Positions 3,386 to 16,608 of a stretch of 32,877 bases of DNA are shown here, piece after piece. The first letter of the stretch is position 1, and every line of letters begins with the position of its first letter. Made by a program: the position numbers and the translations under genes. A model generated the notes under the pieces. That model ran no database searches. It had not been told where the DNA came from and worked only from the letters and a program-made list of their open reading frames with translations. This DNA is from Syntrophales bacterium (GTDB lineage: Bacteria; Desulfobacterota; Syntrophia; Syntrophales; UBA2210): contig JAQUQY010000001.1 in the NCBI GenBank assembly GCA_028715865.1, positions 1-32,877 on the forward strand. Direction: 5' to 3'.

Positions 3386-3784
3386 TCAGTCAAAGTCGAT
3401 GTAAATAACTCCATTTTTAATAAAGTAGGGTGAACCTTCTCCGTCACGGTTGATGTAATAGCCTTCCCCGCTCATAAATATTTGGTCTTCTGAAACTCTT
3501 TGAATCAGTTTCTCGATGGTTTGTGGCATGACGCCCCGCTGTTCCTGAAGTATCTTCAGTTTCTCATCAAAATAAACATTGAAACATCGAACGGCATCCC
3601 GCTTGTCCTCAACGGGCTGGAAGCATTCGAATTCTTTCACGAATTCACCGCAATATGCCGTCTCACCCATTGACGGTACGCAGGTAATTAGCATGAGTAT
3701 AAAAACAAGAAAGGCTACTCTTAGATGTCTCAATGTTCCGTAAGCACCGAATGCCATGGTCAGCTTTCCTTTGCCTTTTTTCAT
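3386..3784 (-). CDS. Hypothetical secreted protein or lipoprotein
   Basis: ATG 3784 is preceded by AAGGAG. The N-terminus MKKGKGK... has a hydrophobic stretch and a lipobox-like LITC. No recognisable domain. The longer ORF reaching 3895 lacks an RBS. Confidence 0.5.
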   Translation of the reverse strand: MKKGKGKLTMAFGAYGTLRHLRVAFLVFILMLITCVPSMGETAYCGEFVKEFECFQPVEDKRDAVRCFNVYFDEKLKILQEQRGVMPQTIEKLIQRVSEDQIFMSGEGYYINRDGEGSPYFIKNGVIYIDFD

Positions 3785-4039
3785 ATAAACTCCTTTGTTG
3801 CTCAATGCTTGCATAGCATCAGGAATAAATCCGGATTGATTACATGCAGCAAAAAAATACAACCCTTGATCCGCGGCATTTTCGCGACCACCCATTGAAC
3901 GGTTCCTGTAATTATACCAGGAACTCCTTTAAGACAAGAAGCCAACACGGAACCATACCCATTTGAGGCGATCAGAGCAGAAAGATTCTTCCATTCACAT
4001 CACACCCCTTAAAAAAGATTTAAAATCCCTCATAAATGC

Positions 4040-4068
4040 TTGAAAATGATTTCTCGATACATTATACA
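4040..4068 (+). promoter_or_regulatory. Candidate sigma-70 promoter (TTGAAA - 17 nt - TATACA) upstream of the PagL-like gene
   Basis: Hexamers and spacing read directly from the sequence. It is bracketed by two TTTAAAATCC copies exactly 60 bp apart (4019-4028 and 4079-4088). Confidence 0.3.
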
Positions 4069-4114
4069 TTCCGACATCTTTAAAATCCATTGTTCCAGCA
4101 AATAAGGAGGCTCA

Positions 4115-4663
4115 GTGAAAACTGCCGGGTCACGCTCAATGTATGTCGTGATGTTTCTTCTAGCATTCATAGCCTCACTTTCATCCACAGCCTTCGGTGC
4201 GGATGCCGCTTATGAAATCACCGTCGGAGCGGGGTCTTCCCTTAACGAAGGGATTAATTCAAGGCAGGTGCTGATAACTCCAGCCTTGAAATGGACCACA
4301 AATAATGAACCATCGATTCAGTTCCGCCTTGAAGGCAACTTCGAGGCAATCTATTACAATGGAAAGATGACCGTCCTGGCCGGTATAGCTCCTATGATTC
4401 GATTATTCCTCTTTCCCTATGAAAAAGGACCCTTTATAGAGGGAGGAGCGGGCCTTAATTACATAAGCCGGCTTTCAATCGGGCACAGGGATCTGGGAGG
4501 CTCCATGATTTTCAGCCCCATGGCGGGAGCCGGATATGGATTTTCCTGGAATGGAAAGCCCCTGATTCTTTCTTTACGTTACCGGCACATTTCCAACGCC
4601 GGTCTGTACTCAAAAAACGATGGTTTTGATTCCCTCTATCTTATGACATCCATACCGTTTTAA
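4115..4663 (+). CDS. Acyloxyacyl hydrolase / lipid A deacylase-like outer-membrane beta-barrel (PagL family)
   Basis: GTG start with an AAGGAGG RBS. It has a signal peptide, alternating beta-strand-like pattern and a C-terminal aromatic residue (…SIPF). The H-x-S-N motif (RHISNAG) matches the PagL-family catalytic His/Ser as I recall it. Confidence 0.7.
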
Positions 4664-4676
4664 TTGGGAGAAGGAA

Positions 4677-5102
4677 ATGAAAAGGCTTATTGCGGGGTTT
4701 TGCCTGATTCTGTTGCTGACAGGAAACGCCTGGGCCGGCGAGGGAGAAACTGTCGTCACTCATGTGTTGTCAAAAACCAGCGAAAGCTGGAACGGCTCGC
4801 CGCTGCCCCCCTATCCGGCGGACACGCCGGAAATTACAATCCTGAGAATAGAAATCCCCCCCGGCGCCGTTCTGCCAATGCATTCCCATCCGGTGATTAA
4901 CGCGGGAGTGCTCCTGCGCGGAGAATTGACGGTAGTGACTGATGAGGGGTCAATACTTAATCTGAAGTCGGGGGAAGCCATCGTGGAAGTTGTGGACACC
5001 TGGCACTACGGAACAAACAAGGGCTCCGAAACATCCGAAATAATCGTTTTTTACGCTGGCGTCGCTGGTAAGCCAATAACCGTCCTCCACCGCGATGAAT
5101 AA
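4677..5102 (+). CDS. Secreted cupin-domain protein
   Basis: Signal peptide ([20 protein letters not shown]). Cupin motif 1 is [17 protein letters not shown], with a second His-containing strand (VDTWHYGTN). Confidence 0.75.
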
Positions 5103-5153
5103 GAAAAATCTAGTCACTCGCAGATCCCAGAATCATGATCAGGAAGCAACTAA

Positions 5154-5873
5154 TTAGAGGATTTCAACTGCCACCTGGGTGCCTTTACGAATATACCCTA
5201 TATAGCAGAATTCAATTTGATGCCTCTCAGTAAACTCCATAAATGCCTTGTATTCATGTTCTACCCATCCAGGGTAGTTATAGTACTCATCGAAAACAAT
5301 GATTGTCCCGGTTACAATCATCTCCCTCAAACCCTCAAGTATTGTCACCGTGGAGCTGTAAAGGTCGCTGTCATTGTGAATGAAGGCAACTTTTTCGCCC
5401 GCATGATCCTTAACAAAAAGGGGCAATGTCTGGTCAAAAAAACCCTTGATTAAAGTGACGTTGCCCCTCACCTTTGGAAGACGGCCCCCCGTGTCAAATG
5501 CTCCTGACCGGCTTCCCATAGTCCAGGTTTCGGGCAATCCGACAAAAGAATCAAAGCCGAAAAAATGTCTTTCCCGTTGCAGCTTGGCCAGCAAATTTAT
5601 TGAATCCCCCTTGTAAACACCGAACTCAAGGCAAAGACCATCGGGAATGTTTTTGTTAAAACAGTATGAAAAGAGCTTTTCTCGCGTTTTGAAGTCCGGC
5701 ACATTTTTAAAATGTTCCCTCTCAAATTCCAAAGTGAGTTTCACAGATTCAACAGTGGCAATTATATCCATGTTCTGAAGCACGCTATAGGCGCAGGTCG
5801 CGAGAAAGCGGTCAAGTGTTTTACGCAACACATAATTAAACTTGGCAGCCAATTCCCTTAATAATATCTGCAA
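5154..5873 (-). CDS. Class I SAM-dependent O-methyltransferase, TylF/MycF-like
   Basis: FGVYKGDSINLL (SAM-binding loop) and FIHNDSDLYSST (metal/acidic motif) are typical of the TylF family. TTG start at 5873; ATG 5771 is an alternative. The gene is about 38-40% GC, below the backbone. Confidence 0.65.
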   Translation of the reverse strand: MQILLRELAAKFNYVLRKTLDRFLATCAYSVLQNMDIIATVESVKLTLEFEREHFKNVPDFKTREKLFSYCFNKNIPDGLCLEFGVYKGDSINLLAKLQRERHFFGFDSFVGLPETWTMGSRSGAFDTGGRLPKVRGNVTLIKGFFDQTLPLFVKDHAGEKVAFIHNDSDLYSSTVTILEGLREMIVTGTIIVFDEYYNYPGWVEHEYKAFMEFTERHQIEFCYIGYIRKGTQVAVEIL

Positions 5874-6090
5874 TGTAACCCCTCCCTCTCAGTTGACCCT
5901 GCAGTAACTTTATCTGTTCGCACTCGAGCGTATAAAGCAACCCTTTAATATAATAAGCATATCGCAATTCCATAAGTTCTATTAATTCCATTTGTTTCCT
6001 TTGTTTACTAAGGACCCAAGCACGCTCTTATCACAAATTTATCATAGTGTGTCAACGCTTCTAATTCTTATACTTATTGGATTTATGGCA

Positions 6091-6230
6091 TGAACCGCCC
6101 CGGGATTGCCGGAGACTTCATTCTGTGAGAGGGTGGAGTCATGAAAGCACAAAGCAGGTATTCCCCTGAAGTCAGAGAGAGGGCGGTTCGAATGGTATTT
6201 GACCATGAGCGTGAGCACGAGTCTCAGTGG
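6091..6230 (+). mobile_element. Truncated left end of an IS3-family (IS51/IS6110-like) insertion sequence: terminal inverted repeat plus the first 30 codons of orfA
   Basis: TGAACCGCCCCGGGATTGCCGGAGACTTC closely resembles the IS6110 28-bp IR as I recall it (TGAACCGCCCCGGCATGTCCGGAGACTC). ATG 6141 encodes MKAQSRYSPEVRERAVRMVFDHEREHESQW, compared with IS6110 OrfA ...RRYPPELRERAVRMVAEIRGQHDSEW. Similarity stops near 6230. Confidence 0.75.
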
Positions 6231-7504
6231 TCACAGATATTGTCGCCTGTCCGGAGCGTTCCTGCCATGTAATCGCCCACCAACCGCTCCGGCGTTTCAG
6301 GTGGAGCGCCGACCACCACGTCGATGCCCTGTTCTGTGAAAAGGCCTTGGGCCCGCTGGCCCATGCCTCCGGCTATTATAAGGTTGGCTCCCCGCTCCGC
6401 CAGCCATGGTGGCAGAAGCCCAGGCTGGTGAGGGGGAGCTTCCACGTCTTCCCGCCCGATGATTTTTTTCTCTACCGGATCGACATCGATAAGAGCAAAC
6501 TGTTCACAGTGCCCGAAATGCATGGAAAGTTTGCCCTTTGCCATGGGAATCGCAATCCGCATATGTTTGTCCTCCTTTTCAATTCCCGTCTCAACTGGTT
6601 TTTCCAAAACGTCCTTCTCGTCCAGTGCCAATATGGGACTCATTATGGCTGCCATGATGCCTGCTGTTGGATTCGAGGCGTAGTGCCGAACAAAAACACG
6701 CCCTTTGTCGGCGGCTTCAGCAACCTCCGAATCCATGGGAATGGAACCGAGAAATGGCACGCCCATGTCCTCGGCGATACTTTTTCCGGCGCCGGAACTA
6801 AGGATATGCGTTACTTCACCACACTTCGGACAAATGAAGCCGCTCATGTTCTCCACAACCCCAAGTAACGGTACGTTGAGCTGACGGCAAAAAGTAATGG
6901 ATTTTCGGACGTCCACCGCCGAGAGCTTCTGGGGGGTGGTGACAACGACGGCTCCGTCAAGTTGTCCTATTATCTGGCAGACCGAAAGAGGTTCGTCACC
7001 TGTCCCGGGAGGAGAATCTATTACGAGGTAATCCAGATCCTCCCAAACCACATCCATAAGAAATTGCTTGATAACACCCATTTTCATCGGACCACGCCAG
7101 ATAACCGCGTCATCGGGATTCCGAAGCAGCAGTCCAAGGGACATTACCTTCATGCCTCCAACGTCAACAGGGAGAAATCCTTCTTCGCAACTTTTGATCG
7201 TCGCGCCATCCAGACCCGGCATGGTTGGAATGCTCGGACCATGTATATCAACATCGAGAAGACCGACTTTTTTCCCCGACAGCATGAGAGTAGTTGCCAG
7301 ATTCACAGCCACTGTACTTTTGCCTACGCCTCCCTTGCCTGAGAGCACAACCACCTTGTGCCTTATGCGGCATAGCCGTGACTCCAATTTTTGCCTTTCC
7401 TGAAAATCCCGGTCGCTTTCACCATCCTTCCGCTGGGAGGTAGAGCAATCCCGGTCGGAACAGCTGCCGCATGAGTCAGCGCCTGCCGAGGCCCCTTCGA
7501 TCAT
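6224..7504 (-). CDS. Mrp/NBP35-family Fe-S cluster carrier ATPase fused to a C-terminal NifB/NifX-type (dinitrogenase FeMo-cofactor-binding-like) domain
   Basis: Deviant Walker A VVLSGKGGVGKST and an ICPKCG motif typical of Mrp/ApbC. The C-terminal 120 aa (MRIAIPMAKGKLSMHFGHCEQFALIDV...IIAGGMGQRAQ) are NifX/NifB-like. Its start overlaps the upstream stop (ATGA). Confidence 0.85.
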   Translation of the reverse strand: MIEGASAGADSCGSCSDRDCSTSQRKDGESDRDFQERQKLESRLCRIRHKVVVLSGKGGVGKSTVAVNLATTLMLSGKKVGLLDVDIHGPSIPTMPGLDGATIKSCEEGFLPVDVGGMKVMSLGLLLRNPDDAVIWRGPMKMGVIKQFLMDVVWEDLDYLVIDSPPGTGDEPLSVCQIIGQLDGAVVVTTPQKLSAVDVRKSITFCRQLNVPLLGVVENMSGFICPKCGEVTHILSSGAGKSIAEDMGVPFLGSIPMDSEVAEAADKGRVFVRHYASNPTAGIMAAIMSPILALDEKDVLEKPVETGIEKEDKHMRIAIPMAKGKLSMHFGHCEQFALIDVDPVEKKIIGREDVEAPPHQPGLLPPWLAERGANLIIAGGMGQRAQGLFTEQGIDVVVGAPPETPERLVGDYMAGTLRTGDNICDH

Positions 7505-7773
7505 GCCCAGTGCCCTTCCACGTCGGGAGCCTTTGCCTCCTCCAGACGTCCTGACCGGTATTCTTCCAGCGCCTCGGCTACCGTCCCGGCGCTGGTGTTG
7601 AAAACTGCAATCCCAGCCGCCGTAAGAACACGAAATGCCTTCGGACCGCAGTGACCCGTAACGAGAGCCTTCGCGCCCGTCCCCGCAACTGTTTGCGCCG
7701 ATTGAATTCCGGCCCCTTGGGCCGCGTTAAGATTCTGCCGGTTGTCTATCACTTCGAAGGCGTCACTTTCCAT
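7501..7773 (-). CDS. NifB/NifX-family small protein; this is the uninterrupted part downstream of an in-frame TGA (the full gene appears to be 7501-7863)
   Basis: NLNAAQGAGIQ...TGHCGPKAF...EGHWA matches the small NifX-like family. The ORF track starts it at an internal Met. Confidence 0.75.
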   Translation of the reverse strand: MESDAFEVIDNRQNLNAAQGAGIQSAQTVAGTGAKALVTGHCGPKAFRVLTAAGIAVFNTSAGTVAEALEEYRSGRLEEAKAPDVEGHWA

Positions 7774-7863
7774 GTCATATACCAGAAACTTCGCCGCCCG
7801 ACCGAAACGTCAGTCCAGCGGAGCCTTAAGATCGTCACCTGATGATGTAAATGCTATTTTCAC
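7774..7863 (-). other. N-terminal 30 codons of the NifX-like gene (GTG 7863 with a GGAGG RBS), in frame with 7501-7773 but containing TGA at 7810-7812
   Basis: Hand translation gives VKIAFTSSGDDLKAPLD*RFGRAAKFLVYDM. This is the conserved N-terminus of the family (MKIA...DPRFGRA), with GGAGG 9 nt upstream of the GTG. Confidence 0.7.
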
Positions 7864-8002
7864 CTGTACATGCCTCCTCACGTGCATCTGTGGTTCATTT
7901 ATGAATGACCGCGCCATCTTCATGGAAAGGGCGCGGCAGCTCATCCTCACAACATACAACTACACGAAGGTTAAGCCGTTCATCTAAAAAGTTTCGAGAT
8001 TA

Positions 8003-8314
8003 TCAGTCCGTCGCGTTTCCGGCTTCAAGCTCGGCAAGACGCTTCCTTATGCTTTCCAGTTCGACCTGCAGGACATCCGCCTGGTTCCTGAGCGCCTGTT
8101 TTTCCATCTCAGGTTCCGGTTCCTGATATGGAGCCGCATGGCCGTAAGGCGCCGCGTAACGGCCGAAGCTACCCCAGCCGGGGAAAACGCCGGCAGTGAC
8201 CATGTCTCGCCATCGGAATCCTGCTCCTCCAAATCCTCTTCCCCGGGTTCCACGTTCTCTGCCGAAGCCCATTCCATAGTTTCTTCCTGGAACGGGATTG
8301 GCGTATCCCGGCAT
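8003..8314 (-). CDS. DUF5320-family protein (Gly/Arg-rich N-terminus, C-terminal coiled coil)
   Basis: MPGYANPVPGRNYGMGFGRERGTRGRGFGG... followed by EMEKQALRNQADVLQVELESIRKRLAELE. This is the architecture and gene neighbourhood (NifX-like plus Mrp) I associate with DUF5320. The ORF could also start at 8347. Confidence 0.6.
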   Translation of the reverse strand: MPGYANPVPGRNYGMGFGRERGTRGRGFGGAGFRWRDMVTAGVFPGWGSFGRYAAPYGHAAPYQEPEPEMEKQALRNQADVLQVELESIRKRLAELEAGNATD

Positions 8315-8436
8315 TGCGAAAACATCCCGCTCGAGACTGTTCGCCATCCAGGCGCTTATTGCCTCGCCCAGATCACCGGCAACAACTGAATGCTGTTCTC
8401 ATTCTCCGGGCCTTTTTGTCCTTTGCCCCATAACAC

Positions 8437-8452
8437 AGCAATACTGGTGCCA
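8437..8452 (-). promoter_or_regulatory. Sigma-54 (-24/-12) promoter: TGGCAC-CAGTA-TTGCT
   Basis: Exact match to the TGGCAC-N5-TTGCW consensus on the minus strand. It lies about 90-120 nt upstream of the DUF5320 start and immediately downstream of a sigma-54 activator gene. Confidence 0.75.
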
Positions 8453-8556
8453 AAGCGCCACCATCATAGCAATTTTTATAACGTCTCGATATTATTGTAT
8501 ATAAATTGAATGGAAAGTATGTGACCGGGATTGGTAGGTTGCGATATAGCTACTGC

Positions 8557-8715
8557 TTATGCCAGCTCAGGCGCATTGATGCTACTCTTATTCTTTCGTG
8601 AAGATCGGCCGTCCTTTTCCGGAAGGGTCATGCCAAGCCTCTTCATTCTGCGGAAGAGTGTGGTTTTATGGATACCAAGTTCCCGTGCCGCCGCGAGGCG
8701 GTTGAAGCCGTTTTT
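8557..8715 (-). pseudogene. Detached Fis-type HTH DNA-binding segment of the sigma-54 activator, in frame behind a TAA stop
   Basis: Hand translation after TAA (8716-8718) gives KNGFNRLAAARELGIHKTTLFRRMKRLGMTLPEKDG...*. This is the canonical C-terminal HTH of NtrC-family enhancer-binding proteins. Confidence 0.7.
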
Positions 8716-10059
8716 TTACAAAGCGGCCTTGATAGCCTGGGTGTCGAGGATTTCGTGGGCGGACCTGATATTCTGATCAATGCCCACCTTTGAACCTCGC
8801 TTCGTCAATTCTTCAGGCAACTGTTCAATCCCGATGTGACCGTCGCCTCGTAAAATAAAGGCCCGCTCAATGACATTCTCCAGCTCCCTGATATTTCCGG
8901 GCCAGTCATGGGCCATGAAAAGCGAGAAGGCTTCCGGTGTCACACCCTGCACTGACTTTTGCTGCAGCCTGTTAAATCGCGCGACAAACTGGGCCGCCAG
9001 GAGAGGAATATCTTCTTTTCGCCGGCGAAGCGGGGGCAATTCAAGACGTACCACGTTCACACGATAATAGAGGTCCTCCCGGAAAAGACCCTGATTCATC
9101 CTGGCCGCGAGATCCCTATTGGTCGCCACAATCACGCGAACATCAGCTTTTTCGGATCTGGTTGATCCAAGGGGCTCAAAGGTTCGCTCCTGAAGTACCC
9201 TGAGAAGCCGGACCTGGAGGGCCGGTGATATCTCGCCTATTTCATCGAGAAACAACGTACCTCCCCGGGCCAGGGCGAAACGGCCGGGCTTGTCACGGTT
9301 GGCGCCAGTAAAGGCTCCAGCCTTGTAGCCGAATAGTTCCGACTCAAGGAGCGTTTCGGGCAGCGCCCCGCAATTGACTGCCACAAAGGGGGAACGGTTT
9401 CGCGGGCTGAGGGAATGAATCGTCCTCGCAACAAGCTCCTTGCCTGTTCCCGTTTCGCCAAGGAGAAGAACGGTGCTGGGGCTTGCGGCAATCGCGGGTA
9501 GAACCTCGAACACCTTCTGCATAAGGGGGCTTCGGCTTGACAGATCACCTACACGGTATTTTCCCTCAAGTTCCTGACGCAGAGCTTCGATTTCCGACAA
9601 GTCCCGGAAGGTCTCCGCCCCGCCGATGACTTCGCCGCGGCCATCCCTAAGCACCGCCGTGGAGATGCTTATTGAAATGCGGTTTCCGTCGGCATCAATA
9701 ATGTATCCTGATTTTCCGATGACAGGTTTGCCCGTCTTCAAGGTTTTCTGAAGCGAGCAGTCTGCCCCGCACATACTGGATCGGAAGACCTCCGAGCAGA
9801 GTCGGCCCAAGGCCTGCTCCCGCGGAACCCCGGTAATCTCTTCGGCTGCCCGGTTGAAGGACGTGACGCGCCATTCCATGTCCACCGTAAAAACACCGTC
9901 AGAGATGCTCTCCAGGATTTCATCCGTCGGAGTACGCATATTCGACACTTTGTTCTTTCTTCCCGTCATAACCGCTTGTTTACCCACGTGTTCCAGGTGC
10001 GTGGATCTTAAAAAATGGTTGCTGTTCTCCCTGCGCCTCTCACGGTTCACCTGCCGCAC
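8716..10059 (-). CDS. Sigma-54-dependent transcriptional activator (PAS sensor plus AAA+ domain), ending prematurely at an in-frame TAA
   Basis: PAS-like N-terminus (ILESISDGVFTVDMEWRVTSFNRAAEEITG). Walker A is LLLGETGTGKE and the GAFTGA loop is YKAGAFTGA, with RELENVIERA near the end of the AAA+ domain. The maximal ORF starts at GTG 10059; ATG 9969 or 9939 is more likely. Confidence 0.85.
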   Translation of the reverse strand: MRQVNRERRRENSNHFLRSTHLEHVGKQAVMTGRKNKVSNMRTPTDEILESISDGVFTVDMEWRVTSFNRAAEEITGVPREQALGRLCSEVFRSSMCGADCSLQKTLKTGKPVIGKSGYIIDADGNRISISISTAVLRDGRGEVIGGAETFRDLSEIEALRQELEGKYRVGDLSSRSPLMQKVFEVLPAIAASPSTVLLLGETGTGKELVARTIHSLSPRNRSPFVAVNCGALPETLLESELFGYKAGAFTGANRDKPGRFALARGGTLFLDEIGEISPALQVRLLRVLQERTFEPLGSTRSEKADVRVIVATNRDLAARMNQGLFREDLYYRVNVVRLELPPLRRRKEDIPLLAAQFVARFNRLQQKSVQGVTPEAFSLFMAHDWPGNIRELENVIERAFILRGDGHIGIEQLPEELTKRGSKVGIDQNIRSAHEILDTQAIKAAL

Positions 10060-10225
10060 CGCCGGTTGTTCGAGCTCACCCTGCTTTGGTTTTTTTCTTA
10101 CAAAATCCCCCTCCTGTTATCGTGCCGGGAGAACTTGGAAGTTCAAAATTTCAAGCATGTAATTGTGTTCTTGCATGATTCTTGGAATTGGTCAATTGTT
10201 GACTAAAAAACGCTTGTCCTGGCAG

Positions 10226-10246
10226 TGAACCGCCCCGGATAGTCCG
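10226..10246 (+). repeat. Solo IS3/IS6110-type terminal inverted-repeat remnant (TGAACCGCCCCGGATAGTCCG)
   Basis: The first 13 nt are identical to the IR at 6091-6103. The next 8 nt resemble the IS6110 right IR as recalled (…GGTGAGTCCGG…). No transposase coding sequence follows. Confidence 0.5.
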
Positions 10247-10374
10247 CTACCCCTTTTTCATCCAGGGAAAAAGCTGCCGGACAAGAAAACTCAAGGGAAA
10301 TAAAACGTAACGGCCGGTAACGGCAGAAACAAGGACAAACAGGAAAAGAGCGTTCAACATCCGGGGTGGGTCAA

Positions 10375-10409
10375 TTTTCGTGATAAAAAGGGATTAGTTT
10401 TCGTGATAA
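10375..10409. repeat. Two direct copies of TTTTCGTGATAA spaced 23 nt start to start
   Basis: Read directly at 10375-10386 and 10398-10409, in non-coding DNA between the activator gene and the csp terminator. Function unknown. Confidence 0.6.
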
Positions 10410-10569
10410 TTGACAGCGGTTATCCTGACAATTACGACCACGGTCAGTAAAAAATGACCCCGGTCTCGTACCGCTCTTCATCCGAAAGGAATTCTCGAAC
10501 TCTCCTTGAGGGCGTGTTTGATGACCGTTAAAGCATACGCGGGACGGTTCAGAGATTGATCTTTGCCGT

Positions 10570-10611
10570 AAAAAAAAGGCACTCACACATGATATTCATG
10601 TAATGAGTGCC
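10570..10611 (-). terminator. Rho-independent terminator of the cold-shock gene
   Basis: GGCACTCA / TGAGTGCC stem with an inner ACATGA/TCATGT extension, followed on the minus strand by eight U. It lies 24 nt after the csp stop. Confidence 0.75.
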
Positions 10612-10634
10612 TGCTTCTGTTCATCTGGCAGACC

Positions 10635-10838
10635 CTAGATGATTTTTACATTCTCTGCTGATGGACCTTTCGCGCCCTTTACAACATCGAAGCTCACGGA
10701 CTGGCCTTCAGTCAAGGTCTTGAATCCACCGGCCTGGATGGCGCTGTAATGCACAAAAACATCACCGCTGCCATCACTCTTCTCGATAAACCCGAAACCT
10801 TTGCCTTCGTTAAACCATTTCACTTTACCTTCTGACAT
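10635..10838 (-). CDS. Cold-shock protein, CspA family
   Basis: 67 aa. [12 protein letters not shown] (RNP-1) and DVFVHYS (RNP-2) motifs. AGGAGG RBS. Confidence 0.95.
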
Positions 10839-11007
10839 CGCTTGTATCCTCCTTTCTTAAATTTTCTCAGCCGGATCAAAACGATGACAAGGTAAAAAAA
10901 TAGCCACCCAGACATTAGAGCATGGTGGCCATCCCTCGCACTTCAAAATGTCTCTATCCAACTTTCTGCCGCACTTCTTTAAGGATTAAATATGCAGCAT
11001 GCTGGTG

Positions 11008-11036: not shown

Positions 11037-11195
11037 GGATTATTTTACTAACAGTTATTTTGTAATGTCTAAGAAACCGGTGCTTACGCGGGAAAGTCCC
11101 TGAAACGTCCCGGGTATTAAGGAGCCGTCGTTAATGGATGTTCTTGACCTGCGCTTGCATGCTTTGCCTATATTAGCATGATATTATTAATAAAA

Positions 11196-11224
11196 TGGCG
11201 GAAGTGCATGGGAATCGAACCCAC
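11196..11224. repeat. Distal att repeat: a 29-bp duplicate of the 3' end of tRNA-Sec
   Basis: TGGCGGAAGTGCATGGGAATCGAACCCAC is identical to 16511-16539. Confidence 0.9.
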
Positions 11225-11436
11225 AGGGCTGATTGCAACAATATGTAATTATTATGATAATTCTTTTTAGAAAAAAGCGGGTACAGAATGGGGACAGCCC
11301 CTGCCACCTGCACAATAATCACCGGCGGATCTCACAGTACTGCATATCTTCAGATACATCTATATGGGTTGGTCGTACGCTTACCCAAAAACAGCTGAAG
11401 TATTGCAAGGTGGTTTTTCAGGTAATCAACTGATTG

Positions 11437-12030
11437 TTAGTTTCGCGATATTTCCTCCCGGAATCGACAAAAACGAATGGACAGCTTCAATAAAAAAAGA
11501 TAAAAACCACTTGTCGAGAGTGTAAACAACTTTATTTTTTCGCTCTTTTCCAAGAACACCGCTAATGGCATAGAGTGGATGTCATCGAGCAAAGCTATGT
11601 ATTCATCATCCAATCCCATGCCTTGCGGCAAATAGAATAAAGTGTATACGTGCTGCTTGCGGATAGCATCAAGTTTAGAATCGATTTCGGTTCTTGATAT
11701 TCCGCTATTCTCAAGTACCTCTATGTAGCTACTCAGCGGAATGATTGGTGCGAAAACTATGTTGACTGGCAAGTCTCTTTCATTGTCGGGATCAATATCG
11801 CAACTATTAGAAAGAATTATTCCCCTAACATTACACAATGTTCTACTGCTATATTCAATTAGCTCAAACGAGTTCCAGCCATCTCCCTGAAGGATTTCAT
11901 CTGGGTACAAACGAGTATAGTACATAAAGTTATCAGGGAAACCCTCCAATGCCCTGATGAGATTATTTTTTTGCTCCTGGGTTAAGTAATATGGAATGTA
12001 GTCTTCAATTGTTTCTCTATTTATCTCCAT
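11437..12030 (-). CDS. Hypothetical protein, cargo gene C (197 aa, no recognised domain)
   Basis: Last gene of the AT-rich operon, 17 nt after gene B. Contains ...RGIILSNSCDIDPDNE.... I could find no Walker, nuclease or HTH motif. Confidence 0.6.
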   Translation of the reverse strand: MEINRETIEDYIPYYLTQEQKNNLIRALEGFPDNFMYYTRLYPDEILQGDGWNSFELIEYSSRTLCNVRGIILSNSCDIDPDNERDLPVNIVFAPIIPLSSYIEVLENSGISRTEIDSKLDAIRKQHVYTLFYLPQGMGLDDEYIALLDDIHSMPLAVFLEKSEKIKLFTLSTSGFYLFLLKLSIRFCRFREEISRN

Positions 12031-12047
12031 ACTTGGGCTCTTGTATG

Positions 12048-12386
12048 TTAGTTCACGTAAAGTTTCCCGATGTTTTCATATAGTACTTTCTCAAACTTTC
12101 TTCCCAAAGGTTCCTGATTCGAAAGTAGATTATGGTAGAATTCAGATATTTTCTCCTCAAAAATAGTGTTTTCAGAATAATGTGAATATGTGAATAGATA
12201 TTTATGTGCATCATTAGTTGGGGTATTAGAGAGTGATCTATACCAACTTGCTCCTACTTTTTCCTTTAATTCCTTATAGTTAACATACGGATCATACGTT
12301 ACGGGCGTTTGAGCTGCCATGATACCAGCGACAATGAAAATTGATCCAATTGTACGCGAGAGATGATTAATGCGATATTCATTCAT
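12048..12386 (-). CDS. Hypothetical small protein with an N-terminal membrane anchor, cargo gene B (112 aa)
   Basis: Hydrophobic segment IGSIFIVAGIMAA near the N-terminus. Its start overlaps the stop of gene A by 8 nt (ATGAATGA). Confidence 0.55.
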   Translation of the reverse strand: MNEYRINHLSRTIGSIFIVAGIMAAQTPVTYDPYVNYKELKEKVGASWYRSLSNTPTNDAHKYLFTYSHYSENTIFEEKISEFYHNLLSNQEPLGRKFEKVLYENIGKLYVN

Positions 12387-13131
12387 AAATTGGCCCCAGT
12401 CTTTCTAGTGTTTCAGCTGTAAGACAACTGAAGAACATCTCTTTGTTTGCAGTATGAATATCTTCAAGCTTATCCTCTAGGCGTGTCAGAAAATCATCAA
12501 ATTTCTCGTCTTGCAAATTACATATCGTATCGATATCAATAACCAATCCCTCAGAAATGATCTTCTTATCAACTGATTCAGCTTTAACTGATGACATGAT
12601 TTGAACAGCCTGAATATATATGGTTCGTGGTATTTCAATACGAATTTGAATGTTTTCTTTTTCCAGTTTGTGCTCACCTATTTGTACTTTAAGCTTGACT
12701 GATGATATCTGGTCTTGCAAGCGAGCTGATGGAATAATATCCACGTACTTCATTGAGTAACGATAAACATTTTGGATAGTGCCAACATCAACAAGGATTT
12801 GTGTAGCTTTCAGAATAAATTCCTTAAAATTATTCCACCCCGGATATGGTAATTTACATGCAATCCCGAAGCTCGCATCTCCAATGAGAATGATAAAGTT
12901 GCCCCAAAAAATTCTAGTCAAAGGTGTGTACTGCAGATTTGAATCATTGTCTCGAATTTCTTTAGGAACACTTGCTGCTCCTAATTGCTCAATTTTTTTC
13001 TCGCCTTCCAGATTCTTAAAAAAAATCCCAGGTAATATGTTAGAAGCAGCAACAGAAGATTTAAATCGCATTTCAAAGACTGCATCAATCAATGGTTCCG
13101 CAGTGAGCTTTATAGGTAATTGCGAAGACAT
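12379..13131 (-). CDS. Hypothetical protein, cargo gene A (250 aa), resembles the uncharacterised TIGR04255 family
   Basis: AAGGA RBS 8-9 nt upstream. The N-terminal signature EPLIDAVFEMRF matches my recollection of the TIGR04255 consensus (P-[LI]-x-E-[AV]-x-x-[ED]-[IL]-R-[FV]). This needs an HMM check. Confidence 0.55.
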   Translation of the reverse strand: MSSQLPIKLTAEPLIDAVFEMRFKSSVAASNILPGIFFKNLEGEKKIEQLGAASVPKEIRDNDSNLQYTPLTRIFWGNFIILIGDASFGIACKLPYPGWNNFKEFILKATQILVDVGTIQNVYRYSMKYVDIIPSARLQDQISSVKLKVQIGEHKLEKENIQIRIEIPRTIYIQAVQIMSSVKAESVDKKIISEGLVIDIDTICNLQDEKFDDFLTRLEDKLEDIHTANKEMFFSCLTAETLERLGPIYE

Positions 13132-13272
13132 TTAGTTTCCTTGGATGTTATCCGGCATGAAGCGTTGTTAGGTAAATAATTCACCGGTAACGTTTGTCCA
13201 TTGACAATGTTCACAACAAAACAATTTAGCCAGTCTGTTAGGTGTGAGAAAGAAGTCCATCATTTACTATAA

Positions 13273-13301
13273 TTCATAATCCTTCTAATGTGTTTTGTCA
13301 A
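13273..13301 (-). promoter_or_regulatory. Weak candidate promoter for the cargo operon (TTGACA - 17 nt - TATGAA)
   Basis: Read on the minus strand, about 140 nt upstream of ATG 13131. The -10 is poor. Confidence 0.25.
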
Positions 13302-13430
13302 TAGTAGCGATTATCCAAGAATATGGCATGATTATATCGATCCAACGAACCACAGGCGGCGAGAATGAGCCTGTAAAGGGCTCGTCGGAGCCGGCATGCA
13401 TTTTTTTTCATCAAAGCAAAAAAAAAGTGC

Positions 13431-13460
13431 TTGACAGGCCTACAGACTCTCATGTACACA
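13431..13460 (+). promoter_or_regulatory. Candidate promoter of the RHH-rep-int module (TTGACA - 18 nt - TACACA)
   Basis: Consensus -35, weak -10. It lies 25 nt upstream of an AGGAGG RBS and ATG 13486. Confidence 0.3.
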
Positions 13461-13485
13461 TTAGTCACTAACAGGAGGTGACACC

Positions 13486-13755
13486 ATGCCCAAAGAAAAA
13501 GGAGACATGCAGGCAGTAACCATCTGGATCAACAAAGACCTGGTGGCACAGATCGACACACTCGCAGAAAAGGGAGACCTTACACGGAGCAAGCTCATCG
13601 GTAATATCATTGAGGTAGGCGTGGAAGAACTCCAGGTAATGAACAAGCTGGGCATATGGGCGGCGGCCCGGATATTCGAGGATATACGACAAGCGTTGAA
13701 GAATCGTCACAAGAGACGAAAAGCCGCCCAGGAATCAAAGGACCAAGAAGAATAA
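13486..13755 (+). CDS. Ribbon-helix-helix (CopG/Arc-like) DNA-binding protein; possible element repressor or excision factor
   Basis: The N-terminal beta-strand plus two helices (QAVTIWINKDLVAQIDTLAEKGDLTRSKLIGNIIEVG) is a typical RHH pattern. Strong RBS. First gene of the replication/integration module. Confidence 0.65.
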   Translation: MPKEKGDMQAVTIWINKDLVAQIDTLAEKGDLTRSKLIGNIIEVGVEELQVMNKLGIWAAARIFEDIRQALKNRHKRRKAAQESKDQEE

Positions 13756-13760
13756 AAAAA

Positions 13761-13797
13761 GGCAAGCACCCGACTTTGGCCGGTCCCGGTGCTTGCC
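13761..13797. other. 10-bp GC-rich hairpin (GGCAAGCACC / GGTGCTTGCC, 17-nt loop) preceded by A7; attenuator/terminator or candidate Rep origin
   Basis: Read directly. It sits between the RHH gene and the small ORF/rep. The U-tract would be on the minus strand only. Confidence 0.35.
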
Positions 13798-13894
13798 CTT
13801 CCCGAAACCTGAGTGTCTTTCGACAGGCTCAAGCAGTTCAACTCTAACAACCTGCCTGATGCGTGTCAAGGACTCTCGAACACAAGGAGTGTCT

Positions 13895-14137
13895 ATGAGG
13901 ACGCGCAGATACAACCGATATCAGCTCGAGAAACATCAAAAGGCGATTAAAACCATTCTTGCCCTCTTTCCTGGGTCCAGAGTTGTCGACACAGGGGATC
14001 AGGATTGCCCGAGGAAACAACCAAGTTATAGTAAGCCCGCGCCGGGAACCGTAGACAGGGCCCAAGCGGGCGGGTCACGGCCTGTAATGGAAAATTATGA
14101 CCTGTTTGAAGGGGAATCAGATGGGGGTGCTATATGA
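13895..14137 (+). CDS. Hypothetical small protein (80 aa)
   Basis: AAGGAG lies 5 nt before ATG 13895. Its stop overlaps the rep start (ATGA at 14134-14137). No similarity recognised. Confidence 0.4.
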   Translation: MRTRRYNRYQLEKHQKAIKTILALFPGSRVVDTGDQDCPRKQPSYSKPAPGTVDRAQAGGSRPVMENYDLFEGESDGGAI

Positions 14138-15327
14138 CTATCAGGCACCCCGCAAAGGTGAAAATTAACGTCTTATCGTCAGGGTTAGATACGGTTGTTT
14201 TATCATTTGACGTAGATTGGAAGGACAGGCAACTATTTGGATATCTTGAAGAAGTTAAAAAGCTATCACAGGAAGTTAGTTGCGATTATCCTGGTTTTCT
14301 CTCACATTTCAAACCTAATGAAAAATGGCCCTTTCATATCAAGCCGAATGGCACAAAGGGGTATTCCTGGATTCTCGTCAATAATGATTTCACATTCAAG
14401 ATTGCCGACAGGCAAAACCCTGGGCCAAGGCCCAATATGATGGTTGAAATCAGATCAGAGGCCCTATGGCGGTTAGGACCTCAGGAAGCCAAAGAAATCG
14501 CTTACAAGGTCATCCGGGCAAGCCAGGGGAATATTGTTGACGTTAAGCCAAGTCGGGTTGATCTTTGTCTTGATTTCATGGTGCCGGAAAAATACTGGAC
14601 CCAGTCGCTGCTTGACTATGCAGTTACCAGGGCAACGGATTTTACACCCTATTATACTCACAGGAAATTGAACGGAATCAGGATCGGCAAGGGCAACATA
14701 TCAGCCCGTTTGTATGACAAGCCCCTGGAGATCCGACAGAAATCAAAGAAATTCTGGATGTACGATATATGGGGGATTGATGAGGTTCCGCCAGATCAGA
14801 AAATAATCCGTATCGAATTTCAGCTAAGAAGGCCGGTGCTGAAAGAACTCGGCCTGAACTGTGATCGTGACCTAATCAATAAGGCTACCGGTGCCTGGGC
14901 CTATTGTACCGGTGAATGGTTAAAGTTTCAGGATCGGCCGGGATTGCACCACACGCAACGGAGAACATTTGATTGGTACAGGCACATACAGGAGGGCTTT
15001 CAGGGAGCCCAAGATGCAGAACCCCTCATCAGAAACAAGGCTGTGCGAGTTGATAAGAAGCGCCTGCTTCAGCAGATCAATGGATCGATAATATCATTGA
15101 AAGCCATAGAACAGGAGGAACGGGGAATCAATGACAGCGGACCTCTAACAATGCAGGATGCGGTCCTTACCTATGCCCAGGAGATAACGAACCATCAGAT
15201 GGAGTATGAGGATATTCAGGAAAGGTTGAAAAAGAAAAGGGCACGGTATCACCGGGAGCTTTCATTGTCGAAGAATCTAGAAGGTGAGGACATGTACGAG
15301 CTCCGAGAGGCCCAAGAATCATGTTGA
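14134..15327 (+). CDS. Replication initiation protein (Rep_trans / phage-plasmid gene II-like rolling-circle initiator)
   Basis: Motif series SRVDLCLDF, ARLYDKPLEI and IIRIEFQLRR matches the R-x-D-x-x-x-D, Y-D-K-x-x-E and R-[IV]-E-x-x-L-R pattern I associate with PF02486-type initiators. Confidence 0.65.
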   Translation: MTIRHPAKVKINVLSSGLDTVVLSFDVDWKDRQLFGYLEEVKKLSQEVSCDYPGFLSHFKPNEKWPFHIKPNGTKGYSWILVNNDFTFKIADRQNPGPRPNMMVEIRSEALWRLGPQEAKEIAYKVIRASQGNIVDVKPSRVDLCLDFMVPEKYWTQSLLDYAVTRATDFTPYYTHRKLNGIRIGKGNISARLYDKPLEIRQKSKKFWMYDIWGIDEVPPDQKIIRIEFQLRRPVLKELGLNCDRDLINKATGAWAYCTGEWLKFQDRPGLHHTQRRTFDWYRHIQEGFQGAQDAEPLIRNKAVRVDKKRLLQQINGSIISLKAIEQEERGINDSGPLTMQDAVLTYAQEITNHQMEYEDIQERLKKKRARYHRELSLSKNLEGEDMYELREAQESC

Positions 15328-15380
15328 CCCATGCCCTCAAATGTCACATAACCTCTCAAAAGAGAGGGGGTGGCTTTTGC

Positions 15381-16496
15381 ATGAAGGGATCAATCCATTA
15401 TCGGAAAGACCGGAAACGATGGCTTGTCAGGTGGTACCATGAAGGAAAAGCCTACAATATCTATCGCTACAACGGAGAATATTTATATGATAGGAGACTG
15501 GCGGAAAAGCTCTTGTCCTGCATGCAGGCAGACGAAGAAAGAAATGTTTTCCGAATCGAAAAATATCTCTATTCGGCAACGGATGTTGTCCCTTATCTGA
15601 GGAAATGGCTTGAAAGTATATCATCCACCTTATCACCGGCAACACATAAGGATTATCAAAACAGCATAGAAAACCATCTCGCCCCGTGGTTTGATGAAAA
15701 CCCCTTCATGCTCCATGAAATTCAATACGACGTTTTGTGTCGACTCATGAATGACATTAAGAGATCGGGCAAGGGAAAGCTCAATGTCCTGTATTGCTTG
15801 AGAGCCTGCCTGGACTACGCATGGAGATCCGGACGAATACCGGCGATTCCTCCTTTTCCGAAAAGAAAAATGTTCGGGATCGTTGAAAAATCCATAAAGT
15901 GGGTTCGTGAGGACAGGCAAAAGGCGATCATTGAAGCGATTCCCGAAGCGCATCAACCAATCTTCTGGTGGCTCAAATACCACTTGCGCCGACCATCTGA
16001 GGCTATGGCGCTCATGAAGGAAGACTATGATCAGGATGCCGACGTTTTCATTATTAGAAGGGCCTTTTCAAATAAGAAGCTAATTGATCGCACGAAGACG
16101 GGCAAGATTCACATCATCCCCTGTCACCCGGATTTCAAGAAGATGATGGAACGGATGCCCTTAACCTTCTCGCCTTTCATGTTTACAAATCAAACAGGAC
16201 GGCTTGAAGGGAAGCATTACCAGCACGATTACTTGGTTGATCTCTGGAACAAAGCATGTCGGGACGTGGGAGAGTCGATAAACATGTATGCCGGATTGAA
16301 GCATTCTTCGTGCTCGCAGTATGTAAACGAGAAGGGCTTGTCAATTGATGAACTGCAAATGCTGACGGATCACGCACGACGGGAAAGCGTTTTGAAATAT
16401 GCCGCGGTCCAGGCAGAAGCAAAAAGAAAACTCATGGCAAGAGTGGTTTCAATTGGGAACAGAACGGGAACAGAAAAAAAGACAGCCGATGGCTGA
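15381..16496 (+). CDS. int: Tyrosine-type site-specific integrase
   Basis: C-terminal catalytic region ...LRRPSEAMAL (Arg I) ... GLKHSSCSQY ... LTDHARRESVLKY (H-x-x-R ... Y). It lies next to the tRNA att site. ATG 15381 is preferred over the ORF-track start 15321. Confidence 0.9.
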   Translation: MKGSIHYRKDRKRWLVRWYHEGKAYNIYRYNGEYLYDRRLAEKLLSCMQADEERNVFRIEKYLYSATDVVPYLRKWLESISSTLSPATHKDYQNSIENHLAPWFDENPFMLHEIQYDVLCRLMNDIKRSGKGKLNVLYCLRACLDYAWRSGRIPAIPPFPKRKMFGIVEKSIKWVREDRQKAIIEAIPEAHQPIFWWLKYHLRRPSEAMALMKEDYDQDADVFIIRRAFSNKKLIDRTKTGKIHIIPCHPDFKKMMERMPLTFSPFMFTNQTGRLEGKHYQHDYLVDLWNKACRDVGESINMYAGLKHSSCSQYVNEKGLSIDELQMLTDHARRESVLKYAAVQAEAKRKLMARVVSIGNRTGTEKKTADG

Positions 16497-16510
16497 AATT
16501 ACTCATAAAT

Positions 16511-16539
16511 TGGCGGAAGTGCATGGGAATCGAACCCAC
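16511..16539. repeat. Proximal att repeat (the 3' 29 nt of the intact tRNA-Sec)
   Basis: Identical to 11196-11224. Confidence 0.9.
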
Positions 16540-16608
16540 CTGAGAGGTTACTAGCCCCCCACACTGGATTTGAAGTCCAGGAGGCCCACCAGAGACCTTG
16601 GCACTTCC
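16511..16608 (-). tRNA. selC: tRNA-Sec (anticodon UCA)
   Basis: 98 nt: GGAAGTGC...CTGGA-CTTCAAA-TCCAG...GTGGGTTCGATTCCCAT-GCACTTCC-G-CCA. It has an 8-bp acceptor stem, a long variable arm, anticodon TCA (plus-strand tga at 16571-16573) and an encoded CCA. The anticodon arm is identical to E. coli selC as I recall it. Confidence 0.9.

Follow-up and report, generated by a model that had tools for sequence, protein, structure and literature searches.

In Enterobacteriaceae, islands and phages such as LEE, SHI-2, PAI-I of strain 536, and the retronphage phiR73 occupy selC, the gene for tRNA-Sec, by means of P4-type integrases, and in actinomycetes there are integrative rolling-circle plasmids such as pSAM2. 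Islands in tRNA genes (tDNA islands) have been defined for the Islander resource by an intact tDNA that shares its replicon with a displaced, directly oriented piece of that tRNA and by an integrase gene within the candidate island (PMC4383910), and integrative mobilizable elements (IMEs) of Firmicutes that carry Rep_trans/MOB_T proteins have been described (PMC5704250, PMC6499999). Here we analyze a 5.3-kb segment, 11196 to 16539, in a 32,877-nt stretch of a Syntrophales metagenome-assembled genome (MAG) (GCA_028715865.1, contig JAQUQY010000001.1); this whole stretch is called the window, and all coordinates are positions in it. The segment is, with good probability, a site-specific integrative element at tRNA-Sec, either an integrative rolling-circle replicon or an IME-like island.

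The element resembles Islander tDNA islands of the class with a 3′ tDNA fragment and attP in the T-stem region: it has an intact tDNA, a displaced fragment in direct orientation, an integrase beside the tDNA, and identity that runs from the T-arm to the CCA. It differs from them in its 5.3-kb size, its tRNA-Sec target in Syntrophales, and an integrase that Pfam recognizes poorly. With the enterobacterial selC islands it has the target gene and 3′-end integration in common, whereas it is 10 to 20 times smaller, sits in another host phylum, and has a rolling-circle Rep where those islands have virulence or phage modules; its integrase has no detectable relative in enterobacterial phages (tblastn against 50,697 phage records, which returned just weak N-terminal integrase matches in Gordonia and Halomonas phages). 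Like Firmicutes IMEs with Rep_trans/MOB_T proteins, it combines an integrase, a Rep_trans-like protein, a small regulator, variable cargo, and a tRNA target with the lack of a transfer apparatus of its own, and it can be likened to pSAM2-type plasmids for its integrase, its Rep, and its integration into a tRNA gene. Unlike either group, it has a Rep that PF02486 misses, no transfer gene, and a host in the Thermodesulfobacteriota; the N-terminal helix-turn-helix (HTH) described for MOB_T proteins is also absent from its Rep.

Attachment sites and the tRNA-Sec target

The window has two exact copies of the 29-mer TGGCGGAAGTGCATGGGAATCGAACCCAC, on the same strand, 5315 nt apart and with 29/29 identity; no further copy was found even with 3 mismatches allowed, and 0 are expected (100 shuffles). 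Read on the tRNA strand, the repeat is GTGGG-TTCGATT-CCCAT-GCACTTCC-G-CCA, that is, the 5 nt of the T-stem 5′ strand, the 7-nt T-loop, the 5 nt of the T-stem 3′ strand, the 8 nt of the acceptor 3′ strand, the discriminator base, and the 3-nt CCA; the acceptor stem of this tRNA-Sec is 8 bp long and the CCA is encoded in the gene. ARAGORN calls a single tRNA in the window, a tRNA-SeC that ends in one of the two copies, and neither ARAGORN nor Rfam calls a tRNA body at the other. A preliminary description of this DNA had proposed perfect repeats bounding the segment, one of them the T-arm and acceptor 3′ end of an intact 98-nt tRNA-Sec and the other without a tRNA body, together with a tyrosine integrase gene ending 14 nt from the tRNA, and had taken this as the attL/attR signature of tRNA-targeted integration in what looked like a deltaproteobacterial genome. 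Each of these points holds, the host included, as Syntrophales belong to the Thermodesulfobacteriota and were formerly classed in the Deltaproteobacteria. The direct repeats are a regenerated tRNA 3′ end and its displaced counterpart, and they enclose a tyrosine integrase gene, which is the arrangement by which Islander defines tDNA islands. The genes beyond it are those of a chromosome: MoeA is encoded on the tRNA side, and a CspA cold-shock protein and a sigma-54 activator on the opposite side. GC content falls to 36 to 39% at 11.5 to 13.5 kb, compared with ~52 to 55% in the flanks.

Likeness between the two junctions extends beyond the 29-mer. On the trailer side, positions 11179 to 11195 and 16494 to 16510 are identical at 13 of 17 positions, which makes the extended match 46 nt at 91% overall, and the element side adjoining the core therefore mimics the selC trailer; related elements likewise have an A/T-rich AATAAAATCAA-like stretch beside the core. 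On the host side past the distal core (11184 to 11195, tRNA strand), the sequence is TTTTATTAATAA, similar to ATTTTATTCAAT, the native trailer of selC in the nearest relative (L001); this similarity hints that the window from 11195 downward is the original selC trailer. The predicted attB junction reads CATGATATTATTAATAAAA, TGGCGGAAGTGCATGGGAATCGAACCCAC, and CTGAGAGGTTACTAGCC in succession, and the predicted attP junction GGCTGAAATTACTCATAAAT, TGGCGGAAGTGCATGGGAATCGAACCCAC, and AGGGCTGATTGCAACAATATG. In five other loci (L106, L017, L040, L054, and L068) core identity is only 24 nt and ends at the T-loop/T-stem boundary, suggesting that crossover takes place in or 3′ of the T-loop.

The only 8- to 10-mer repeated in the reconstructed attP forms a tandem pair, GGGAACAGAA c GGGAACAGAA, at the end of the integrase gene, and a second pair of the same motif lies just inside the distal core. 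A tandem pair with 11-nt spacing stands at the equivalent position in all 31 related loci that have an adjacent tRNA, with a sequence that varies by element (GGGGGAA, GGGGGAC, CGTAGGCAC, GTAGGTAA, or TTCCGGG). Five other elements that could be delimited (L014, L017, L018, L021, and L029), as well as the sibling element L106 described below, repeat their own proximal motif at the equivalent distal position, so that the motif is common to both sides of any one element and differs between elements while the positions are conserved. We infer from position and sequence, with the putative sites flanking the attP core as in arm-binding integrases, that the pairs are probably arm-type sites bound by a heterobivalent integrase. 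The conserved position of the pairs and the motif shared across both sides also indicate that the distal 29-mer works as an att end rather than being a stray fragment.

Target choice is specific throughout the integrase family. A profile-guided scan for relatives returned 79 metagenomic and 11 viral loci, and the following counts refer to the 87 loci with at least 150 nt after the integrase gene. The preliminary description had asked whether relatives of the integrase also use selC; they do, with tRNA-Sec or its 3′ fragment at 56 of the 87 loci and no other tRNA type at any locus. A complete tRNA-Sec lies within 150 nt of the integrase gene, convergent with it as in the window, at 31/87, a group that includes nearly all loci with at least 62% integrase identity; it is 0.9 to 2.6 kb away at 6/87, and a 3′ fragment adjoins the integrase gene at 19/87. 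Seven of these fragments are in the same orientation, some cut off by a contig end and others resembling tandem arrays or attP, and the remaining 12, in opposite orientation, belong to a sub-clade (IMG/VR viral contigs included) with the integrase gene at the distal end of the element. In loci with sufficient flanking sequence, direct repeats of 24 to 28 nt from the tRNA 3′ end mark out elements that range from 4.0 to 11.6 kb, and moeA-selC synteny is kept in 25 loci.

Several of these loci deserve separate mention. In the sub-clade with the opposite layout (42 to 62% identity; L040, L054, L060, L062, and viral contigs L082 to L092), the integrase gene occupies the end of the element remote from the tRNA, points in the same direction as the tRNA, and precedes the displaced fragment; predicted viruses of >40 kb are included. 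Among L012, L018, L038, L014, L047, and L063, some show a tRNA-Sec 3′ fragment after the integrase gene and then kilobases without a tRNA, and three have two integrase copies; such fragment-only and two-copy loci suggest tandem arrays of elements at selC. Within NCBI assemblies, the closest integrase is that of L095 (a 14.4-kb contig of GCA_040961015.1; 82% identity); its gene is followed by neither a tRNA nor a core, and a core-like 29-mer with 2 mismatches is found 5.2 kb upstream of it. In a more distant relative of the host (L002, MoeA 52% identical), a C-terminal integrase remnant still adjoins selC, and translations read by eye of the following region (6139 to 11000 of that locus) resemble Fic-type, RhuM-type, and type I methylase-fragment proteins; we read this region as a putative decayed island at the equivalent selC site.

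The sibling element (L106) comes from a Logan contig of a different sample (SRR18944115, compared with SRR22315506 for the window) and is 85% identical in DNA to window positions 13353 to 16078, which cover the promoter region and gene of a ribbon-helix-helix (RHH) regulator, an 80-amino-acid (aa) open reading frame (ORF), the Rep gene, and the start of the integrase gene. In L106 a host flank, a 24-nt core, and the arm motif of the window are followed by unrelated genes up to the RHH promoter. Backbone and motifs are thus shared while the cargo is different, which identifies a conserved backbone and an exchangeable cargo slot (Table 1). The cargo region of L106 also contains a perfect inverted repeat of ~28 nt at ~240 to 460, GGACTAGCCCCCGTTTTGACCGGACACC ... 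GGTGTCCGGTCAAAACGGGGGCTAGTCC.

Table 1. Features of the tRNA-Sec-associated element, in window coordinates
Feature	Position	Strand	Evidence or remark
Distal att core, displaced tRNA-Sec 3′ fragment	11196-11224		Exact 29-mer, 0 by chance
Distal tandem pair of the window's motif	11279-11299	+	GGGTACAGAA t GGGGACAGCC; 55 to 75 nt inside the distal core
Exchangeable cargo slot	11300-13352 (about)		Unrelated genes in this interval in L106; GC 36 to 39%
Cargo gene 3, 197 aa	11437-12030	-	PHROG 4575, 6.5e-59
Cargo gene 2, 112 aa	12048-12386	-	Start overlaps end of gene 1 by 8 nt
Cargo gene 1, TIGR04255 family, 250 aa	12379-13131	-	NCBIfam TIGR04255, 2e-27; PHROG 5464, 4e-57
CopG-type RHH regulator, first backbone gene	13486-13755	+	PF01402 RHH_1, 22.8 bits (cut-off 20.5); PHROG repressor families
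Hairpin just 3′ of RHH gene	13761-13797	+	10-bp stem; DNA fold -12.8 kcal/mol, z = -3.2
80-aa ORF	13896-14137	+	AAGGAG before it; stop overlaps rep start (ATGA)
Rep, 397 aa, rolling-circle initiator; Rep_trans (pT181 family) and inovirus gene II are distant relatives	14134-15327	+	Fold, motif, homologs
Tyrosine integrase (int), 371 aa from conserved Met21	15381-16496	+	PF00589 and PHROG 1; open frame from 15321
Proximal tandem pair, putative arm-type integrase sites	16455-16475	+	GGGAACAGAA c GGGAACAGAA; within int 3′ end, 11-nt period, 36 to 56 nt from core
tRNA-proximal att core	16511-16539		Last 29 nt of selC 3′ end; exact 29-mer and sequence reading
tRNA-Sec (selC), intact, integration target	16511-16608	-	ARAGORN, 98 nt, anticodon TCA; Rfam RF01852, 74.7 bits (gathering score 47)

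Backbone proteins and cargo

The backbone consists of genes for the RHH regulator, the 80-aa ORF, Rep, and the integrase, in that order, and all of its ORFs are intact. The integrase frame is open for 391 codons (15321 to 16496), but Met21 is invariant in the family alignment, and the 371-aa form that starts there is also the gene call on a Logan contig from the source sample. Pfam Phage_integrase (PF00589) matches residues 194 to 365 at 30.8 bits against a threshold of 27.1, PHROG 1 (integrase) matches at 1.6e-32, and 685 homologs were collected; a PDB search with the integrase profile found no significant relative of solved structure. Numbered in the 391-aa frame, the catalytic residues map to R224 (Arg I), K259 (Lys), H351 (His II), and Y360 (the Tyr nucleophile), with A324 at the His I position, where relatives have Ser or Asp, and K327 at the Arg II position. 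A MAFFT alignment to three canonical integrases gives this mapping, as does hhalign, with low confidence (hhalign probability 10%), and hhalign of the profile with a Xer-like protein and with a Bacillus integrase gave no usable alignment of the catalytic domain. R224, K259, K327, H351, and Y360 are invariant among 37 family members. The apparent non-canonical active site of this clade, with Lys for Arg II and no His I, is a lead drawn from weak alignments; the published signature of the IntDes subgroup, Tyr at His I and a shifted Arg I (PMC8138268), is not an obvious fit.

A tblastn search located homologs of the RHH protein in 6 related loci, and blastp clustering placed RHH-family ORFs in 4 of the delimited elements. 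In pMV158-type rolling-circle plasmids, copG is followed by repB, and the position of the RHH gene upstream of rep in the element parallels this order. The 80-aa gene is also called at the equivalent position in L106; it has no family match in Pfam, PHROG, or NCBIfam and is a candidate accessory or excision factor. Hairpins of divergent sequence occur in L011, L018, and L021 at the position equivalent to that in the window, where the hairpin is a candidate double-strand origin or nick-site hairpin, or else a terminator without a T-tract. The motif ATGCGTnTGTCAA is common to the window, L011, and L021 and is not kept in L017 or L018. Promoter and terminator scans of the sequence gave counts equal to the shuffled expectation.

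None of the 454 homologs of Rep is annotated or has a Pfam domain, and the assignment of Rep comes from fold, motif, and context. An AF2 model built from 42 sequences (pLDDT 86.5) has the two-lobed beta-sheet fold of RepD/RepDE, and its top Foldseek matches are the staphylococcal RepDE/RepD structures 4cwc and 4cwe (E = 1.8e-8, probability 1.0, TM score 0.48 on the target), with TBP-like folds in the second tier. Y194-D-K196-P-L-E199 (Y-x-K-x-x-E) is invariant in the 42 sequences, and Y194, K196, and E199 match motif III of Rep_trans/MOB_T proteins, a catalytic Tyr followed by an essential Lys at +2 and Glu at +5 (PMC6499999). Three cation-binding acidic residues have been described for Rep_trans in the same work (PMC6499999); the model puts the nearly invariant D19 and three invariant residues, D143, D147, and E228, on separate strands, and D19, D143/D147, and E228 are candidates for this role. 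Two tiny plasmids carry homologs, one being the main ORF of two that are annotated in a 1.7-kb Mesotoga plasmid and the other a match within a 1750-bp Synechococcus plasmid that lacks annotation; further homologs are gene II “replication endonuclease” of the Thermus inoviruses OH3, phiOH16, and Zuza, and a Bacillus thuringiensis “replication initiation factor” (hhalign probability 99.9%), in which ARIYNKTLEV aligns with motif III and whose gene is followed by those for an HTH_17 protein and an integrase. Pfam matches within the family are weak (Phage_CRI in 5/42 and Rep_trans in 2/42, the best Rep_trans E value being 0.036), PF02486 gives no match to the Rep of the window itself, and PDB sequence searches with Rep and its profile returned nothing significant. 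Fold, motif III, plasmid and inovirus homologs, and these weak family matches together identify Rep as a divergent rolling-circle initiator of a family that falls outside the Pfam definition of Rep_trans. Rep has Y-x-K-x-x-E and a two-lobed, TBP-like beta-sheet fold in common with pT181 RepD/RepDE and inovirus gene II and differs from them in sequence (15 to 16% identity) and in an extra C-terminal helical region of ~130 residues. The public annotation of rep (PHU03_00090, 296 aa) takes in no more than 75% of the ORF; the longer form of 397 aa, N-terminal strands included, is supported both by homologs and by the structure model.

The cargo of the window is a three-gene cassette on the opposite strand. 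Its 250-aa product was modeled by AF2 with a pLDDT of 94 and has only TBP-like and AdoMetDC-like structural matches (TM score about 0.3) and nothing significant in a PDB sequence search. The 112-aa protein is homologous to the middle gene product of a cassette in a Desulfobulbaceae MAG (8e-13) and weakly to one in Pseudomonas phage Dobby. The 197-aa protein is 42 to 47% identical to cassette proteins of Pseudomonas phages Dobby and VW-6S, and an exact look-up of it found nothing on record. All three genes recur together in the Desulfobulbaceae MAG (L097, 6001 to 7712), and the cassette directly adjoins the portal gene in the P2-like phage Dobby (L093, 1114 to 2786) and directly follows the gene for the CI repressor in the lambdoid VW-6S (L094, 4001 to 5653), a distribution that marks it as a mobile unit in these sequences. 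The phage positions would be typical for lysogenic-conversion or exclusion genes, and the cassette is possibly defense related; the PHROGs that it matches carry no functional annotation, and we found no literature on TIGR04255 or the matched PHROG numbers. In another lineage (L099 to L102), the TIGR04255 gene has different partners, of 173 and 117 aa, and lies beside polA and a TacA antitoxin gene.

The remaining genes of the window are housekeeping genes, among them those for DctM, PagL, NadA, Mfd, SurA, and UvrA. A second low-GC stretch at 3500 to 6000 (42 to 45%) holds PagL-like, cupin, and methyltransferase genes, and no mobility genes were seen in it.

Weighing the readings of the locus

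In the explanation that we favor, the element would enter the chromosome when its own arm-binding tyrosine integrase recombines attP with the tRNA-Sec 3′ end (attB). Because the attP core copies the tRNA from T-stem to CCA, integration would regenerate an intact selC, and the original 3′ end would be left behind as the displaced 29-bp fragment. The CopG-like RHH protein may act as a repressor of the backbone operon. After excision, the circle would be nicked and copied by the Rep_trans-like initiator, so that the excised element would behave as a small integrative plasmid, and the nicking activity of Rep may also permit mobilization by a helper.

A number of results weigh against this explanation. 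An empty attB in a near-isogenic genome was not found: a MoeA scan of genome contigs returned two relatives, with MoeA 72% (L001) and 52% (L002) identical, neither close enough, and in L001 selC lacks an integrase and is followed by different genes. Exact-protein look-ups of the flanking Csp and MoeA had no match on record. The attP junction was not found in IMG/VR viral contigs, nor was the circular form found, and a Logan contig from the source sample ends inside the core, which tells nothing either way, as this tRNA end is common to many co-occurring organisms. Among the element proteins no excisionase is recognized, Rep does not reach the PF02486 Rep_trans threshold, no Rep nick site was identified in the element, and none of the seven proteins matches PADLOC-DB v2 at E up to 0.1. 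The canonical set for tyrosine recombinases, the pentad R-K-H-R-H and the Tyr nucleophile (PMC8138268), is present at four of six positions, the other two being apparently substituted in the low-confidence alignments, and this particular integrase copy may be inactive. The perfect repeats and the many independent insertions argue that the integrase clade is active. The support for integration is comparative rather than direct and comes from the architecture of the family and from the sibling.

On another reading, the repeat is a chance or duplicative tRNA fragment and the region an immobile, decaying island detached from site-specific recombination; in its favor, neither excision nor an empty site is directly seen and the integrase pentad is non-canonical. 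We consider this very improbable: the repeats are identical at 29/29 positions against a chance expectation of 0, the backbone ORFs are all intact, arm-type motifs are preserved on both sides, an 85%-identical sibling occupies the equivalent target in another sample with other cargo, and the architecture recurs in dozens of loci. Satellite filamentous phages are similar in size to the element, and the matches of Rep to gene II of Thermus inoviruses OH3, phiOH16, and Zuza, with weak Phage_CRI matches in 5/42 family members, raise the question whether the element is a satellite or decayed remnant of an inovirus-type filamentous prophage, in which a gene II-like Rep makes single-stranded DNA circles that a helper inovirus packages. 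This, too, is improbable, if somewhat less so, as none of the seven ORFs encodes a Zot/pI assembly ATPase, a coat protein, or a single-stranded DNA-binding protein (Pfam, PHROG, and NCBIfam), the identity with inovirus gene II is 26 to 27% over just 38 to 39% of the protein, and no helper phage is visible in the window.

A closer contender is that the element is an IME whose Rep serves mainly as a MOB_T-type relaxase at an oriT, the circle moving through the mating pore of a co-resident conjugative element with no plasmid maintenance. MOB_T relaxases are Rep_trans-family proteins that bear Y-x-K-x-x-E (PMC6499999), and IMEs are small and carry an integrase and a relaxase without a type IV secretion system (PMC5704250), a gene content compatible with that of the element; moreover, the Bacillus homolog of Rep is part of a module of Rep, an HTH_17 (Xis-like) protein, and an integrase. 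Among the nearest Rep homologs of known context, however, are inovirus gene II and the main ORF of a 1.7-kb plasmid, which both serve in replication, and no coupling protein, oriT, or conjugative element was recognized in the window. We hold relaxase-led transfer to be a minority possibility, though one that is compatible with an integrative element at tRNA-Sec and not mutually exclusive with the explanation that we favor.

Implications

The integration mechanism seen here is textbook, and the element is a well-formed but ordinary case of tRNA-targeted integration. More speculatively, and with rather less than even chances, the integrase could represent an undescribed subgroup of arm-binding tyrosine recombinases that is widespread in Syntrophales, other Thermodesulfobacteriota, and other anaerobes, is dedicated to tRNA-Sec, has Lys for Arg II and no His I, and uses element-specific arm sites, and the cassette a new prophage-type defense or exclusion system. 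If this is true, the element-specific arm sites could be used to study or re-program arm-site specificity. The non-canonical integrase pentad and the three-gene cassette are modest leads, and the arm motifs and the apparent Arg-to-Lys change offer testable ones for recombinase biochemistry. For the wider biology of these bacteria, selC is an integration hotspot far beyond Enterobacteriaceae, and the element, with its core, four arm-type sites, regulator, Rep, integrase, and one cargo slot, is a compact and fully delimited model of a minimal integrative replicon, in hosts that are syntrophic, uncultured anaerobes with few genetic tools.

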